Origin: Candidatus Hydrothermarchaeota archaeon
GTDB taxonomy: Archaea; CAYFZR01
Direction: 5' to 3'
NCBI GenBank assembly: GCA_046760505.1
Contig: JBHIEG010000011.1
Location: forward strand, 1 to 64,000
Length of the DNA: 64,000 bases
Shown here piece by piece: positions 1 through 58,737 of the stretch. How positions within the stretch are numbered: position 1 is the first letter of the stretch; the number at the start of each line of letters is the position of its first letter. The position numbers were made by a program, and so were the translations under genes. The notes below the pieces were generated by a model. That model had not been told where the DNA came from and made no database searches. It saw only the letters and a program-made list of their open reading frames with translations.

Positions 1-749
1 CTGCATGCTCTGTATGCCATTACGTCCTTTTTTCTCCTTTCTCTTATCCATTTCCACGCTGATACCGCGTTATGAATACCATTACCGGTCGGCAAGCCAA
101 ACCTTGATTTTGATACGAGAACGCATCTCATGGCATGGCTTGCTCCTTCTCCAAAAGGAGTAACTGCTGTATCAATTAATATTTTCGAGAAACATTCTCT
201 TCCTACATTTAAGAGTCCTTCTTTTAAGATGCCCGCGCCATTTTCTAGCAGGTTTATTTTTCCTCTAACGGAAGAATCCATTGGATTAAAGGCGAGTAGA
301 ATGGAGGATTCTATATCTGATTCTTTAAGTGTATTAATCTCTTCTTCGTTCATGCTTACCGAGAGGGAATTGTATATAACCTTATCCACGAGACCAATCT
401 CCTCCGAGTATTTTATACCGTGCAATCTTACCTTATATTCTGTTGAATCAACCAAAATAGGTCTATCAAATCTTGAAACAAAATCAAGATATCTTTCAAT
501 TGCAGAATTACTTAATGCAAATACCTGGATCATGCATGGATTTCCAGTGATATCGGATAGTCCCAACATCTCATTGATCAATTCATCTGCTTTATTTTCA
601 TCGAATATTCCTTTTTCTTGGTTTTCTACAATTTTATGCCCTTCATAAAATATAGTTCCAACTAGCACAGTTGGATTCTCTCCAATCTGACCTCCTATCT
701 TTGTGTCTCCGATATTTATTACTTCTTGTTCTCTATCAATCTTAAACAA
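1..749 (-). CDS. mtrH: Tetrahydromethanopterin S-methyltransferase subunit H (partial, runs off the window edge)
   Basis: Not in the ORF track; translated by hand from TTG at 749 (RBS AGGTG upstream): MFKIDREQEVINIGDTKIGGQIGENPTVLVGTIFYEGHKIV...VIYNSL...LIDTAVTPFGEG...FGLPTGNGIHNAVSAWKW, which are hallmark MtrH motifs. Confidence 0.95.
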   Translation of the reverse strand, partial: MFKIDREQEVINIGDTKIGGQIGENPTVLVGTIFYEGHKIVENQEKGIFDENKADELINEMLGLSDITGNPCMIQVFALSNSAIERYLDFVSRFDRPILVDSTEYKVRLHGIKYSEEIGLVDKVIYNSLSVSMNEEEINTLKESDIESSILLAFNPMDSSVRGKINLLENGAGILKEGLLNVGRECFSKILIDTAVTPFGEGASHAMRCVLVSKSRFGLPTGNGIHNAVSAWKWIRERRKKDVMAYRAC

Positions 750-750
750 T

Positions 751-888
751 TTAAGCACCTTTTATAATGAGTAGCAGAAAAAATAAAAGAGTTCCAGCGA
801 TGATTCCGGTGATGAATCCATGCCTTCTTCCTCTCATCATGAGATAAACCTCAATTCTATCAATAAGATATGCCTCTGGATTCTTCAT
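751..888 (-). CDS. mtrG: MtrG-like single-TM small protein (45 aa)
   Basis: Hand translation MKNPEAYLIDRIEVYLMMRGRRHGFITGIIAGTLLFFLLLIIKGA; GRRHGFITGIIAG resembles MtrG GRDIGILYGIVIG; AGGAG RBS, ATGA overlap with the upstream gene, canonical position before mtrH. Confidence 0.7.
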   Translation of the reverse strand: MKNPEAYLIDRIEVYLMMRGRRHGFITGIIAGTLLFFLLLIIKGA

Positions 889-992
889 ATTATTACTCCT
901 GATATTATTCCTAAAACAAGTCCTAAGAAAAAGAACCTCCAGTCTATCTCTTTTTTTCTGCTTATTTTTAACCAGTAGTTTATTTCTTTCAT
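885..992 (-). CDS. mtrF: MtrF-like single-TM small protein (35 aa)
   Basis: Hand translation MKEINYWLKISRKKEIDWRFFFLGLVLGIISGVII; ATGA overlaps at both ends; canonical mtrF position between mtrA and mtrG; sequence similarity is weak. Confidence 0.6.
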   Translation of the reverse strand: MKEINYWLKISRKKEIDWRFFFLGLVLGIISGVII

Positions 993-1648
993 AAAAACCA
1001 CCCGTAGAGGGCTGAAAGTAAGATCAAAGACAAAACCATACCTTGTACAAAGCCTTTAAACCATTCGTGTTCATAGTTCTTTAGAAATGCATAGAGCATG
1101 GCCCTCTCATGGACTCTTTCAACAGGTAATTCTTCTTCGTCTTTTTTTGAAATTCTTTTCTCAACCTTAATAATTTCCTTCTTTTCCTCGATTATATAAG
1201 GAGGTTCATCAAAAGGGCCTGGATTTCTCTCTAAACATTTCTTTATGACTTCATATATCTTTTTTCTATCAGTTATCCCCACCATATCCAAGAATTCTAC
1301 TTGCCTGCGGAATCTTTCTATCGCTTCTCTTGGTATGTTCTCTATGTATGGTATCGCGCCTTCTGCATTGATTATCTTTCCCCTTTCATCGATGCCGTTT
1401 TCGTACAAAGCCTTGAAGGTGATCCCCGGCTTATGGCCCTGAACTTCTTCTCCACATACAATTAAGAACCTGATGTTTGGATTTGAAATCACGTTTGCTA
1501 TTACCTTCTCTATGCCTATATTCTCGGTTTTCAAGGGTCCTATTATTGCAACATCATCAAAATCAAAATCAGATGAGAGAGTTACGACTGCTATGGGATC
1601 TCTAGAATCCTTCACCTTATAGTCCCCAGAAACGACCGGCCAATCCAT
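989..1648 (-). CDS. mtrA: Tetrahydromethanopterin S-methyltransferase subunit A (corrinoid protein) with C-terminal membrane anchor
   Basis: WPVVSGDY, KTENIGIEKVIANVISNPNIRFLIVCGEEVQGH (cobamide-ligand His), GAIPYIEN; C-terminal TM FKGFVQGMVLSLILL. Confidence 0.95.
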   Translation of the reverse strand: MDWPVVSGDYKVKDSRDPIAVVTLSSDFDFDDVAIIGPLKTENIGIEKVIANVISNPNIRFLIVCGEEVQGHKPGITFKALYENGIDERGKIINAEGAIPYIENIPREAIERFRRQVEFLDMVGITDRKKIYEVIKKCLERNPGPFDEPPYIIEEKKEIIKVEKRISKKDEEELPVERVHERAMLYAFLKNYEHEWFKGFVQGMVLSLILLSALYGWFL

Positions 1649-1652
1649 CTTT

Positions 1653-1874
1653 TCACCTCAAGAATCTAACCATCAAAAAACCTAGTATGAAGCCTGTAAC
1701 TATCGCTTTCTTGCCCCAGAACCAGTCTTCAGAGTTGATCAAAAAAAGGTCTATGATTGAGAATTCATCCTTTATATCGAATTCGATTTCGGCTTTTCTC
1801 TCCTCTAAGGTTGTTATCAAGCCATCCTCAGTTATAATCAACCCGTATTCAGGGGATAGATGAATAGCACGCAT
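1653..1874 (-). CDS. mtrB: MtrB-like subunit, shortened (73 aa)
   Basis: IHLSPEYGLII..DGLI, DLFLINS and GKKAIVTGFILG match MtrB-type motifs; lies directly upstream of mtrA. Confidence 0.8.
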   Translation of the reverse strand: MRAIHLSPEYGLIITEDGLITTLEERKAEIEFDIKDEFSIIDLFLINSEDWFWGKKAIVTGFILGFLMVRFLR

Positions 1875-2061
1875 ATTAACCTCTCAGGTCATAAAACTAT
1901 TTAAGTTTAAGTCTAATATGAATAACTGCCAAACTTTACGTTTCAATCCCTAAAATCATAGATTTAAATTGTTAAGTATTTATTTTCAAATTACTAATAT
2001 TTTTGAGAATCTGTTGGCTGGAGAAAAATTATTTGTAGTGTAATGGGATATAACTTCAATT

Positions 2062-2478
2062 ATGTGGTCCAGTATAAAAAAGACAATAGAATGGATCTTT
2101 ATCCTACTGATTCTTTTTACGCTCATCTTTGATATCCTTGTATTCACCCACACCGAAGTAGTAGATGTACAACCACCCAACCTTCTCAATGTAAAGGCCA
2201 GATCCACATTCATAGACCAAGAAATACTGATTCAAAATCCAAAGGATTATCCAATAAGCGCAGTGGTAAGCGTTGAGGCACCTAAGTACTGGATCTTGAT
2301 CGGTTTGGTATCTTGGGAACCCAAGACTCTTTCTGGTGTATTAGAGATACCTTACTTCGAAATTATACCTTCAGGAAGATATTACATAATTAACATTTAT
2401 CTACAAGGAAACAACGCGATAAAACCCGGAGAAACGAAGAGGTTTACAGTCCAGTACGGTATAGGTCGGGAAATTTAA
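2062..2478 (+). CDS. Hypothetical membrane-anchored protein
   Basis: 138 aa, N-terminal hydrophobic helix followed by a beta-rich domain. Confidence 0.6.
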   Translation: MWSSIKKTIEWIFILLILFTLIFDILVFTHTEVVDVQPPNLLNVKARSTFIDQEILIQNPKDYPISAVVSVEAPKYWILIGLVSWEPKTLSGVLEIPYFEIIPSGRYYIINIYLQGNNAIKPGETKRFTVQYGIGREI

Positions 2479-2506
2479 CATTAAAGTAAAATTATCAATT
2501 ATGAAA

Positions 2507-2902
2507 CTAAGCTTCCCTCGTTACGCTCACATCCACACAACTCAGCAAGGATTGAACGCGTTCAAAACTCCTGTTCAATAACTCTCTAACAAGTTCTGGT
2601 TGCAATCTTTTGTTTAAGTTGTAAAAGGTCTTTACAGAATCTAAAACTTCTTTATCTCCTGTAGAAACGGTGGCAATACCATTGAGCTTTGCTTTGAAGA
2701 AATATTCGGTCTCTTCTTTGTCCAATGCCTCAGGAGGGTGGGCGTATTCTAGCACGAAGAAAAATTTTAATTCGTTATCTTCTTCCTCATAGCCCTCAAA
2801 TTTTAGTCTTGTTCCTCCTTTACCCTTTGTCTCTTTGTAGTCCCATTCTCTCTTAACATAAGCTTCGGTAAAGAATACACCAAACGTAATTGGTTTCTCC
2901 AT
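2507..2902 (-). CDS. Hypothetical protein (possible SecB-like fold)
   Basis: 131 aa ORF abutting the beta-CASP gene; apparent pattern of four strands then two helices. Confidence 0.5.
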   Translation of the reverse strand: MEKPITFGVFFTEAYVKREWDYKETKGKGGTRLKFEGYEEEDNELKFFFVLEYAHPPEALDKEETEYFFKAKLNGIATVSTGDKEVLDSVKTFYNLNKRLQPELVRELLNRSFERVQSLLSCVDVSVTREA

Positions 2903-29164: not shown

Positions 29165-30133
29165 GTGAAATTCATGGATAAATGTATGCTTGATGTACAG
29201 GGCACAAGGCCTCCAGTAGCAATCCATCTATCAAGGGTTGGGGTTACAAACGTGAAAAAACTCGTGGAGGTAAACAGAGGTGAGAAAAGACCAATTATAC
29301 TCATAGCAGAGTTTGATGCATACGTTGACCTCCCATACGACCAGAAAGGCGTCCACATGTCTAGGAATCCTGAGGTAATCAACGAAGTTTTGGAAGAAGC
29401 CACAAAAGATCAGATTTATGAAGTGGAATCCCTATGTGCAGAAATGGCCAAAAGACTGCTTGAAAGGCATTTATACGCAAACAAGGCGGAAATTAGAATG
29501 AACAGCGAATTAATGATTAGGAGGAAACCTCCAATAAGTAAATCGAGTACGCAGGAAATCGTAAAATTGCTTGCCCAAGCAGTTGCGTGCAGGGAAGGGA
29601 AAGATATTACCATAAGGAAAATGGTTGGAGCAGAAGTTACTGGAATGACTGCATGTCCTTGCGCTCAGGAAATAATAAGGGAAAATATTAAAGAGAGGCT
29701 TGTAAAAATTGGTTTGAAAAAAAATGAAATAGATAGCGTCCTTGAATCCATACCAATGCCAACCCACAACCAAAGGGGGGTCGGCACCATAATGATCGAG
29801 GTGCCTGAAGGATACGACATCAGAGTGGAGACCCTATTCGAAATCATTGAAAAATCCATGAGCTCCTCGGTTTATGAACTGCTCAAAAGAGAGGACGAGG
29901 CAAAGGTAGTTGAGATAGCCCATATGAATCCCATGTTTGTAGAAGACTGTGTGAGGATGATGATAGAGAGGATAGTTAATCGCTTCACTGACCTGCCAGA
30001 TGATACGCAGGTAACCGTAAGGCAAATTAACGAAGAAAGTATCCACAGGCACAACGCCTTGGCAGAAAGAATTGCATCTCTGGGAGAATTGAGAAACGAA
30101 ATAAACGACCAAAAGGCATTTAAAACTGATTGA
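29165..30133 (+). CDS. mptA: GTP cyclohydrolase MptA (FolE2 family)
   Basis: LSRVGV, KGVHMSR, GMTACPCAQ, THNQRG, LLKREDE, NPMFVED, NEESIHRHNA. Confidence 0.93.
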   Translation: MKFMDKCMLDVQGTRPPVAIHLSRVGVTNVKKLVEVNRGEKRPIILIAEFDAYVDLPYDQKGVHMSRNPEVINEVLEEATKDQIYEVESLCAEMAKRLLERHLYANKAEIRMNSELMIRRKPPISKSSTQEIVKLLAQAVACREGKDITIRKMVGAEVTGMTACPCAQEIIRENIKERLVKIGLKKNEIDSVLESIPMPTHNQRGVGTIMIEVPEGYDIRVETLFEIIEKSMSSSVYELLKREDEAKVVEIAHMNPMFVEDCVRMMIERIVNRFTDLPDDTQVTVRQINEESIHRHNALAERIASLGELRNEINDQKAFKTD

Positions 30134-52371: not shown

Positions 52372-52968
52372 ATGAATTTCAAGGACTTTCACGGGCACAT
52401 CTGTCCAATGTCCATACTTGGTATCAAGATGTCTAACTATGCTCTAAAACTTTTGGATATCAACTCAAAAAAAGAGGGGATCATAGCGATTCCCGAAATA
52501 AGAAACTGCATGGTGGATGGAATACAGTGGACTATTGGCGCCACTTTCGGAAAGACAAATCTTATTTTTAGAGATATCGGGAAATATGCGTGTGTATTCA
52601 GCAGGGAGAAGGACGGAAGGTCTCTCAGGATAAAAATAAAAGATGATATAGTTGAAAAAAGTCTTGAATACGGAAAAGAAGCCCAAATGGTCCGTAAAAG
52701 ACTTTCTAAAATGGATGAAGAAGAAAAAAGATGGGAATTGGAACTGCTGTTCAGAAAGGGAAGGAACATAGTTGACTACATAGAAAAAAAGGACTATGAA
52801 GATCTCTTCGAGGTGAATGATGTAGAGCTGAATCTTAAGATAGAGGAAGATTCCCTTGATGTAAAAAGGTGTGATAAATGCGGAGAAATCACTTTGAAAG
52901 AAAAATTGACGGACAATTTATGCAAAGATTGCCTGGATCCTTTCTATTCTATAAAAACTATTCCATAA
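52372..52968 (+). CDS. FmdE-family protein with C-terminal Zn finger
   Basis: FHGHICPMSILG, NCMVDGIQ, GATFGK, CDKCGE..CKDC. Confidence 0.88.
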   Translation: MNFKDFHGHICPMSILGIKMSNYALKLLDINSKKEGIIAIPEIRNCMVDGIQWTIGATFGKTNLIFRDIGKYACVFSREKDGRSLRIKIKDDIVEKSLEYGKEAQMVRKRLSKMDEEEKRWELELLFRKGRNIVDYIEKKDYEDLFEVNDVELNLKIEEDSLDVKRCDKCGEITLKEKLTDNLCKDCLDPFYSIKTIP

Positions 52969-57098: not shown

Positions 57099-58064
57099 AT
57101 GTATATTACTAGGTTAACACTAATCATGATTATTGTAATGCTACTTTTGAGCGGTTGCATTTCAAGAGTTCCTGAAAGAGAACTCCCAATGAGGATAGGA
57201 CAACTCAGCGGCGTTGCCAACGAGGAATACTTCGCGATATATAACAATTACTTCGAAAAGGAAGGATTGAACATCACATGGGTTCCTTTCAGGGGAGGAT
57301 CCGGTGTAGTTCAAGCGGCAATTGCAAACCAGATAGATGGCGGCGTGATGGGATCTGTACCTGCGGTTATAAAAGCTGTTTCCAGAGGAGTACCATTGAA
57401 AATTGTTGCAGTGGGAGCATTAGAAACTAAGGAACATTCTGGAGACAGGCTAGTTGTTTTAAAAAAATCAGGAATAAAGGATATCAAGGATCTAAAGGGC
57501 AAAAAGATTGCAGTGCATAGATTCGGAACAACGCTGGACTTTATAGTCAGAAGAGTATTAAAAGAGAACGGCATAGATCCGGTTAAGGATGTCACACTGG
57601 TTCAAGTGCCAGTGCCTCAAATGGTCCCGGTGCTTCAGAGAGGAGAGGTAGATGCTGCTTTCATCTTCCCCTATTTCTATCCTTATGTAAAAGACAACGT
57701 GACAATTTTAATCACTCCAGGAGACGTGTATCCAGAGGGATTTCCAATTAGTGTGGTTTTTTTCAGGGAAGAATTTATACAAGAGCACCCAGAAAAAGTT
57801 GAAAAATTCGTTAGGGCTTATCTAAAGGGTATTGAATGGGGAGAAAACAACCCCGACAAGTTACCGGATCTCGTTGTAAAATACACAGATATACCAAGAG
57901 AAATAGCCACAGAAATCCCATGGCCTGCAAATAATCCCTCAGGCAGGGTAGATTCGAAAACATTCGATAAAATAATAAGTGATATAAAAGATTACGATCC
58001 TACGCTTTTAGAAAAGAATGTTACAGGGGAAGATTTATTAGATTATAGATTCTTGCCTACTTGA
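57099..58064 (+). CDS. SsuA/THI5-type ABC substrate-binding lipoprotein
   Basis: Lipobox LLSGC; YFEKEGLNI, FRGGSG, IKDLKGKKIAV, GEVDAA. Confidence 0.9.
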   Translation: MYITRLTLIMIIVMLLLSGCISRVPERELPMRIGQLSGVANEEYFAIYNNYFEKEGLNITWVPFRGGSGVVQAAIANQIDGGVMGSVPAVIKAVSRGVPLKIVAVGALETKEHSGDRLVVLKKSGIKDIKDLKGKKIAVHRFGTTLDFIVRRVLKENGIDPVKDVTLVQVPVPQMVPVLQRGEVDAAFIFPYFYPYVKDNVTILITPGDVYPEGFPISVVFFREEFIQEHPEKVEKFVRAYLKGIEWGENNPDKLPDLVVKYTDIPREIATEIPWPANNPSGRVDSKTFDKIISDIKDYDPTLLEKNVTGEDLLDYRFLPT

Positions 58065-58737
58065 TTTCCTTATAAATTCCCTCTCCTGCGCAGGGGCGAC
58101 AGTATCTCTTTCCATCTTTTTCTACTGTTTTTCTCTCTTCCACCAGATCATTGCATCGAGCGCATTTTATCGCATTCGTTATGTATTGAGTGTCCAGAGG
58201 ATACATCATGTCCTCTGGATTCACTTTGACCTCTGAAACTATGAACAGTTCATCATCTCCCATTTTGTTCCATTTCTCTAACAATCCGTCTTCAATATCA
58301 AATAATTCCTTTCTCCATTTCTCTGCTTCTTCATCAGAGAGATTATCTACCTTTTCGTAAAATTTTGCCAACTCAGATCCATACCTTATGTGCTCTTCAT
58401 CAACATCTTCTCTGCACCTTATTCTAATGGTCTTGCCAGTTCTTCGATCGCAAAATATGGCTGCGAACTTTCCATAATCCTTGAAGGTTAATCTGCCGCT
58501 TCCAAAAGAGCAATTCGTTGCGCTGGCTATTCCATCTGCTGCACAGGTTAGAACCTCCACTGTAGCGCATAAATCTCTTTTCCTTTTAATATCAAGTTTT
58601 TTTAGAGCTAACATACCCATTCTGGCCCCTAAATAAGAGGCCGTACAGACATGACCATGTACTCTTCTCACGGTTTCTAGTATCTCATCGAGAGTCATTT
58701 CCTTCAGTTCTTTTAGACTCTTATCTCTCTTCTCCAT
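58057..58737 (-). CDS. FmdE-family protein with C-terminal Zn finger
   Basis: VHGHVCTASYLG, TCAADGI, CSFGSG, DYGKFAAIF, CARCND..CRPC. Confidence 0.88.
   Translation of the reverse strand: MEKRDKSLKELKEMTLDEILETVRRVHGHVCTASYLGARMGMLALKKLDIKRKRDLCATVEVLTCAADGIASATNCSFGSGRLTFKDYGKFAAIFCDRRTGKTIRIRCREDVDEEHIRYGSELAKFYEKVDNLSDEEAEKWRKELFDIEDGLLEKWNKMGDDELFIVSEVKVNPEDMMYPLDTQYITNAIKCARCNDLVEERKTVEKDGKRYCRPCAGEGIYKEIK

Follow-up and report, generated by a model that had tools for sequence, protein, structure and literature searches.

The first 1874 nucleotides of contig JBHIEG010000011.1, from a metagenome-assembled genome (MAG) of a Candidatus Hydrothermarchaeota archaeon (GCA_046760505.1), carry five genes in the order B-A-F-G-H that probably encode a membrane-anchored methyl-tetrahydromethanopterin (methyl-H4MPT):cobamide methyltransferase. 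The canonical Na+-translocating methyl-H4MPT:coenzyme M (CoM) methyltransferase, MtrABCDEFGH, is encoded by the operon mtrEDCBAFGH (structures 8Q3V and 9QTP) and catalyzes the one energy-conserving step common to most methanogens. In its structure, three MtrCDE pump globes are attached to a central (ABFG)3 stalk. The cluster described here would be an Mtr cut down to the methyl-H4MPT half-reaction, with neither Na+ pumping nor CoM. As described for the canonical complex, methyl-H4MPT is bound by MtrH, which transfers the methyl group to the cob(I)amide of MtrA; MtrCDE contains the sites for CoM and Na+, and MtrA, MtrB, MtrF and MtrG contribute one helix each to the (ABFG)3 stalk; AlphaFold models put the N-terminal arm of MtrB on MtrH (PMC10998594).

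Gene order and the MtrA and MtrH subunits

The stretch that was analyzed (the window) is 64,000 nucleotides long and corresponds to contig positions 1–64,000, with window base 1 being the contig end. Five open reading frames (ORFs), all on the minus strand, were called within window positions 1–1874. From 5′ to 3′, they encode a 73-aa protein at the MtrB position (the B-like protein, 1874..1653), MtrA (219 aa, 1648..989), a 35-aa tail-anchored protein at the MtrF position (the F-like protein, 992..885), a 45-aa tail-anchored protein at the MtrG position (the G-like protein, 888..751) and the N-terminal 249–252 aa of MtrH (758 or 749..3). The junctions are, in the same direction, a 4-nt gap, an ATGA overlap of the mtrA stop codon with the ATG of the F-like ORF, a further ATGA overlap between the F-like and G-like ORFs, and a 1-nt gap. 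Because of this pattern of gaps and overlaps, the genes were considered to form one translationally coupled operon. A GTG at 1001 is an alternative start of the F-like ORF. The likely start of mtrH is the TTG at 749, giving (M)FKIDREQ, which resembles the canonical MFxFxKEQ, with the GTG at 758 as the alternative. The mtrH gene reaches 252 of about 311 codons and is truncated because window base 1 is the end of the contig; its downstream side lies outside the window. The missing 3′ end (59 codons) was on no other contig of the MAG, and nothing recognisable was found at the start of contig C24, beside trkH, which was looked at for it.

As judged from their sequences, the identities of MtrA and MtrH are certain. 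MtrA consists of a cobamide-binding domain, a charged linker and a C-terminal membrane helix. It matched PF04208 with an E-value of 3.7e-61 (Pfam), passed the NCBIfam subfamily model NF002126, and aligned with the TIGR01111 equivalog from residue 3 to residue 212 (profile positions 11–231 of 238), that is, through the C-terminal helix. The hydrophobic segment comprises residues 196–214, and the canonical G-x-VQG motif is found in the helix. The cobamide histidine motif, which an earlier reading of the DNA from sequence only had reported as intact, proved to be so: H72 in GEEVQGH is invariant in the alignment and corresponds to His84 of canonical 239-aa MtrA, described as the cobalt ligand (PMC10998594). 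MtrH matched PF02007 with an E-value of 2.3e-92 over profile positions 1–239 of 299 (Pfam) and, though truncated, scored 313 bits against the TIGR01114 equivalog, for which the cut-off is 271 bits (NCBIfam). The MtgA model was also matched by MtrH at 171 bits, far under the cut-off of that model. This was the only MtrH-family match in the genome.

The three small membrane proteins and the distribution of the cluster

The sister species (genome G001) carries the same complete five-gene cluster, and the five ORFs of the two species are 78–89% identical at the protein level (B-like, 88%; F-like, 89%). In this two-species comparison, dN/dS was 0.10, 0.07 and 0.06 for the B-like, F-like and G-like ORFs, respectively, and 0.09 for MtrA and MtrH, with dS ranging from 0.66 to 2.3. 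The three small ORFs are real genes under strong purifying selection. Each of the encoded proteins has a hydrophobic C-terminal segment preceded by positive charges; in the B-like protein, this segment (AIVTGFILGFLMV) is short and below the hydropathy threshold used, and it follows the N-terminal arm LSPEYGLIITEDG. The small proteins are thus positional and topological equivalents of MtrB, MtrF and MtrG.

Searches with the single proteins gave weak hints in the same direction for two of the three. The top match of the B-like protein in the whole PDB was MtrB of the M. mazei complex (9qtp_E), with residues 2–44 aligned to residues 2–43. Comparison of the G-like protein with the canonical MtrG alignment gave an hhalign probability of 79% (E 1.6e-5) over residues 20–40, the juxtamembrane and membrane part. 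In the ESM Atlas, the nearest named cluster to the G-like protein was MtrF at 0.78, which is below the meaningful level and was kept as a lead only, and nothing usable was found for the B-like protein.

The same layout was found in genome G018, which belongs to an unrelated small phylum. Its cluster consists of a 72-aa ORF, MtrA (219 aa, with a transmembrane helix), a 46-aa ORF, a 41-aa ORF and MtrH. The 41-aa protein matched MtrG over its full length with an hhalign probability of 78%, and its soluble part was beaten by none of 1000 shuffled sequences. The phylum is represented by five genomes, among which G018 alone has the anchored form. MtrE, MtrD and McrA were not found in G018 (the MtrC search was confined to the present MAG, G000). 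The upstream genes differ: a 138-aa protein is encoded there in G000 and G001 and a 1357-aa protein in G018, and the 138-aa and 131-aa ORFs that lie upstream of the window cluster are not beside the G018 cluster. Mainly because two unrelated lineages share the layout small-A-small-small-H with each other and with the canonical operon, it is likely that the small proteins descend from MtrB, MtrF and MtrG.

Sixteen loci had MtrA and MtrH without matches to MtrB, MtrC, MtrD or MtrE. One of them (L027) is the G018 cluster, and in another (L102) the contig ends within a canonical operon. The remaining 14, which came from Thermoplasmata, Sifarchaeum, Methanosarcinales/ANME-2 and genome G016, encode an MtrA of 187–258 aa that lacks a terminal hydrophobic helix. 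Thirteen of these loci were inspected; their A and H genes adjoin or overlap (in one, with up to 85 nt between them), and small ORFs with a transmembrane segment were absent; for the fourteenth (L042), only the MtrA helix was checked. Because the 14 soluble loci lack the MtrA helix and the 13 inspected ones lack small transmembrane ORFs, the anchored form without a pump can be set apart as a third class from both the full complex and the soluble pairs.

Genes for thymidylate synthesis were observed near some MtrA and MtrH genes. A ThyA-like gene lies right after mtrH in G018 (L027:4008-4643) and after a lone mtrA in G006 (L028:7020-7841), and a dCMP deaminase gene precedes mtrA-mtrH in G016 (L029:5407-5916). 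These neighbors hint at a biosynthetic one-carbon role for some MtrAH remnants.

Absence of the pump subunits and alternative explanations

MtrE, MtrD and MtrC (PF04206, PF04207 and PF04211) gave no match at E ≤ 1 in a six-frame Pfam search of the MAG, while both methanogen control genomes gave all three in the same searches. Our own hidden Markov models (HMMs), built from 33 MtrE, 36 MtrD and 40 MtrC sequences, gave no credible match among 20,835 six-frame ORFs; the best scores, 11 and 15 bits, came from off-frame low-complexity ORFs, and MtrA and MtrH were recovered from the same set with E-values of 6e-56 and 3e-71. In the sister species, MtrE and MtrD were not found, the MtrC search having covered G000 only. 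McrA (PF02249) had no match in G000 and was not found in G001 either, ComA had no match in the MAG, and the best scores for sulfopyruvate decarboxylase were 18–22 bits against a cut-off of 148 bits. The lack of mtrEDC that the sequence-only reading had reported at the locus therefore extends to the genome as searched with Pfam models and our own HMMs, together with McrA, ComA and any sulfopyruvate decarboxylase above the cut-off. Marker completeness was 100% for both G000 and G001.

The canonical reference set came from a scan of the genome collection with an MtrA alignment, from which 80 loci, mostly of Methanobrevibacter, were kept. An MtrB could be recognised in 40 of 87 reference loci. In all but one of these (39 loci), mtrC is the immediate upstream neighbor of mtrB, the exception being a locus truncated by the end of its contig. 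In the window, the region upstream of the B-like ORF is, exactly as had been read from the sequence, a divergent intergenic region of 187 bp (1875–2061) followed by a divergent gene. This gene encodes a 138-aa protein with an N-terminal membrane helix (2062–2478, plus strand), and a conserved 131-aa ORF comes next (2507–2902, minus strand); the families of both were not recognised, and both lie in the same order in the sister species. A 26-nt block of the intergenic region (1890–1915; TAGACTTAAACTTAAATAGTTTTATG, minus strand) is shared without any change by the sister species, the remaining intergenic sequence having diverged in the alignment, and the region is a candidate archaeal promoter of the operon. 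A promoter and terminator scan of the locus gave counts at the level of shuffled sequences; its models are bacterial and inapplicable to an archaeal host.

Four public DNA runs from one study, labelled as a hydrothermal vent metagenome, were used to check the assembly. Contigs of three of the four runs span window positions 1–2500 unbroken and extend 73, 165 and 949 nt past base 1, and the fourth run is fragmented at the locus. Since the upstream junction is covered by independent contigs and the sister species shares the gene order across it, there is no misjoin upstream, and the break or misjoin that had been named as a danger to the sequence-only reading was not found there. At window positions 84–111, beside the contig end, contigs of three of the four runs carry seven substitutions in 28 nt relative to the MAG; a strain-variable patch inside mtrH may explain why the assembly breaks there. 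In the sister species, mtrH is complete (311 aa) and the operon stops with it, followed by two convergent genes for a 135-aa membrane protein and a SatD-like protein.

Several observations weigh against the cluster being a trimmed, anchored Mtr, and most of them concern the small proteins. These had no match in Pfam or NCBIfam, even at E ≤ 10 in Pfam, and Pfam models of MtrB, MtrF and MtrG at E ≤ 10 found nothing at the locus in a six-frame genome search. Thus, five packed ORFs with MtrA and MtrH were borne out from the mtrB-A-F-G-H set named in the sequence-only reading, while the names MtrB, MtrF and MtrG lack a match to any family model. Our own HMMs of canonical MtrB, MtrF and MtrG (from 39, 36 and 41 sequences, mostly of Methanobacteriales) gave at most 11 bits on the small proteins, with the membrane segment driving the score. 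The PDB match of the B-like protein to MtrB had an E-value of 1.3 only, and BLASTP of the same protein to canonical MtrB gave E 1.4. In hhalign, the B-like protein reached at most 10% with any of the three canonical alignments, and the F-like protein at most 10% with MtrB or MtrF (10% with MtrF), its best match being MtrG at 47%. The scores of the non-membrane parts were matched or beaten by 119 (B-like), 92 (F-like) and 515 (G-like) of 1000 shuffled sequences. The small proteins are also much shorter (73, 35 and 45 aa) than those of the canonical complex, which have about 100, 70 and 80 aa, and MtrA itself scored 206 bits, under the TIGR01111 cut-off of 249 bits (NCBIfam). A full HMMER search among 1.84 billion representatives returned the B-like protein itself and one 844-aa surface protein (P0242), and the B-like protein is thus an orphan; the surface protein has five repeats of the motif LEPEYRFFISQNGIITTLQEFS, resembling the N-terminal arm, and the match was judged to be due to chance and inflated by the repeats. 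The failure of the family models, the shuffle tests and the orphan status would all be expected if the locus were an ordinary MtrA-MtrH pair, with an MtrA that happens to keep its helix and small ORFs for unrelated membrane proteins that form no stalk. We regard this as unlikely, since the number, order and tail-anchored topology of the small proteins are those of the canonical B-A-F-G-H genes and recur in G018, where the last small protein matches MtrG significantly. The hhalign result for the 45-aa protein of the window, MtrB as the top PDB match of the B-like protein, with the N-termini in register, and the translational coupling and strong purifying selection of the genes argue in the same direction.

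The MAG consists of 142 contigs and has 5.67% contamination (4% in G001), which also counts against the proposed enzyme, and the contig breaks inside mtrH, so that the 59 codons found on no other contig are real sequence missing from the assembly. From this it could be argued that mtrEDC, and perhaps mcr, lie in an unassembled part of the genome and that the operon is merely split from a normal Mtr. This is highly improbable given the marker completeness of both species, the failure to find MtrC, MtrD and MtrE in G000 by two methods and MtrE and MtrD in G001, and the absence of matches to McrA and ComA. Moreover, where mtrC abuts mtrB in 39 of 40 canonical loci, both species have a conserved promoter-like region, and independent contigs bridge the junction. 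It would also be conceivable that the stalk is joined to some other, non-homologous membrane module whose genes lie elsewhere and that methyl transfer is still coupled to ions or to a membrane-bound acceptor. Purifying selection acts on the anchors as strongly as on the catalytic subunits, which suggests that being at the membrane is important and would suit such docking, but no conserved polytopic membrane gene lies beside the cluster in G000, G001 or G018, and we consider this explanation improbable. A further difficulty is that the acetyl-CoA synthase of the host can take methyl-H4MPT directly, and the need for MtrA and MtrH is therefore left unexplained by the pathway. Weighing these points together, we retain a membrane-anchored methyl-H4MPT:cobamide methyltransferase as the probable function of the cluster.

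Phylogeny, host metabolism and proposed role

In an MtrA tree of 99 sequences, which was quick, unrooted and sparse, the window MtrA branched from an unresolved basal polytomy and belonged neither to the canonical clade, which contained all 10 full-operon rows (support 99), nor to a large soluble clade (support 81). The G018 MtrA formed its own clade with two relatives from short contigs (support 99). For the MtrH tree (21 rows, unrooted), the protein of the sister species was used because the window MtrH is truncated; it grouped with soluble Methanosarcinales/ANME-2 pairs (93/91), with the full-operon clade as the neighbor (87/89), and the G018 MtrH was separate. The phylogeny proposed along with the sequence-only reading thus sets the window MtrA apart from the canonical clade and leaves it undecided whether the anchored form is a remnant or ancestral, because the trees are neither rooted nor densely sampled. 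The position of both MtrA proteins outside the canonical clade, on an unresolved base, is compatible with an anchored MtrA-MtrH with three small partners being a functional stalk module that predates the pump. Mtr would then have arisen by adding the MtrCDE globes, and the G000 lineage and G018 would keep the pre-pump state instead of a decayed Mtr. We think it quite unlikely that this was the course of events.

A second, distant MtrA-like protein of 277 aa is encoded on contig C9 (L020:9621-10454, minus strand). It has an MtrA domain and a C-terminal GYF_2 domain and no membrane helix, and in the MtrA tree it formed a far outgroup with a protein of G002. The gene is divergent from one for a 513-aa protein (L020:8074-9615, plus strand) with DUF6513, Pterin_bind and PterinBD-DUF4346 domains.

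Within the searched genome set, the phylum of the host is represented by two species, G000 and G001. The large subunit of DNA polymerase D had one relative at 85% identity, followed by Archaeoglobales, Hydrothermarchaeota and Methanocellales at 51–55%. Ftr, Mch, Mtd, Mer (531 bits against a cut-off of 349 bits) and CdhC were found in both species. Because these are present and Mcr and CoM genes were not found, the host is considered a non-methanogenic archaeon with an H4MPT Wood-Ljungdahl pathway. The presence of Mer, Mtd, Mch and Ftr supports the use of methanopterin, for which an mptA gene in the window had been cited earlier; a GCHY-1 (FolE2/MptA-type GTP cyclohydrolase) gene is located at window positions 29165–30133 (plus strand). 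Two genes with FmdE domains were also observed in the window (52372–52968, plus strand; 58057–58737, minus strand), one of them beside genes for an NMT1-type binding protein and an ABC transporter.

A corrinoid methyltransferase cluster with no MtrH-family gene of its own is located on contig C1 (L112:5435-12210). It encodes a URO-D-like protein of 342 aa, an S-adenosylmethionine methyltransferase, an HGD-D-like protein, a RACo-type reductive activase of 520 aa, a B12-binding corrinoid protein of 204 aa and a URO-D-like protein of 405 aa. The corrinoid protein, flanked by the two URO-D-like genes and the activase, is the one B12-binding corrinoid protein in the genome. Seven URO-D-family matches were found in the genome, one of which is a true HemE beside ferrochelatase. 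On contig C19 (L114:4866-8309), this HemE (URO-D, 445 bits), the ferrochelatase and a protoporphyrinogen-oxidase-like flavoprotein are encoded in a row, an arrangement of the classical heme branch that is unusual in archaea and could be due to gene transfer or be part of the 5.67% contamination.

In the proposed enzyme, the cobamide of MtrA, held by His72, would be the methyl carrier, and MtrA would be anchored in the membrane through its own C-terminal helix. The three tail-anchored small proteins probably surround MtrA and would form a counterpart of the Mtr(ABFG)3 stalk. Because MtrC, MtrD, MtrE, Mcr and CoM synthesis are missing, the enzyme would be unable to methylate CoM or to pump Na+ in the known way. 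Most likely, it connects the methyl-H4MPT pool to other corrinoid methyltransferases of the host, with the URO-D-like methyltransferases, the soluble corrinoid protein and the RACo activase as candidate partners. For the direction of transfer, we lean slightly towards methyl groups passing from methylated substrates through corrinoids and MtrH to H4MPT, and then to acetyl-CoA synthase or oxidation, because the corrinoid cluster on contig C1 lacks a pterin methyltransferase and MtrH is the only MtrH-family gene of the genome. Moving methyl groups into H4MPT is the role proposed for MtrAH remnants generally (PMC9635834).

Compared with canonical Mtr, the window form has the same gene order, three single-pass small proteins at the B, F and G positions, an MtrA with the histidine ligand and C-terminal anchor helix, and an MtrH that passes the equivalog model. 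It differs in lacking MtrC, MtrD and MtrE with their CoM and Na+ sites, in small subunits of about half the length that are missed by family models, in an MtrA of 219 instead of about 238 aa that is below the equivalog cut-off, and in a host without Mcr or recognisable CoM synthesis. The absence of pump subunits and Mcr is shared with the soluble MtrA-MtrH pairs of Thorarchaeia, Thermoplasmata/SG8-5 and environmental Methanomassiliicoccales and with the extra pairs of Methanosarcinales/ANME-2, for which methyl transfer to or from the pterin pool has been proposed (PMC9635834; 10.1101/2020.03.09.984617). Unlike these soluble MtrAH or MtxAH-type pairs, the window form has an MtrA anchored by residues 196–214 and two small membrane genes between A and H. 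Bathyarchaeia of o__B25 likewise retain Mtr in a non-methanogenic archaeon with a Wood-Ljungdahl pathway; there, the complex is reported as complete, without Mcr, and described as a remnant (PMC9635834), whereas the window form is without the three polytopic subunits.

MtrH-family enzymes also take part in corrinoid O-demethylase and methylotrophy systems of the MtgA and Mto/Mtv type. As in these systems, an MtrH-family enzyme would move methyl groups between a corrinoid protein and a pterin, and the host genome has URO-D-like methyltransferases, a corrinoid protein and a RACo activase. In contrast to the window form, systems of this type are soluble, use B12-binding (PF02310) corrinoid proteins instead of MtrA and lack membrane anchors.

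Outside methanogens, MtrAH lacking its other subunits is well known (PMC9635834; 10.1101/2020.03.09.984617). No published set of A, B, F, G and H without C, D and E was found in the literature, where partial sets may sit in supplementary tables, and the trimmed anchored form seems to be undescribed. Since no family model recognises the small subunits, standard annotation pipelines would label the locus as MtrAH only, and anchored forms may therefore hide among the MtrAH remnants already reported. For the deep-branching host, the cluster indicates a methyl-transfer link into the H4MPT Wood-Ljungdahl pathway. If the proposed function is true, the cluster would be a natural minimal system for asking what the stalk does alone and whether it keeps MtrH at the membrane, and it could help to tell whether a simpler methyltransferase gained the pump or was left behind when the pump was lost.

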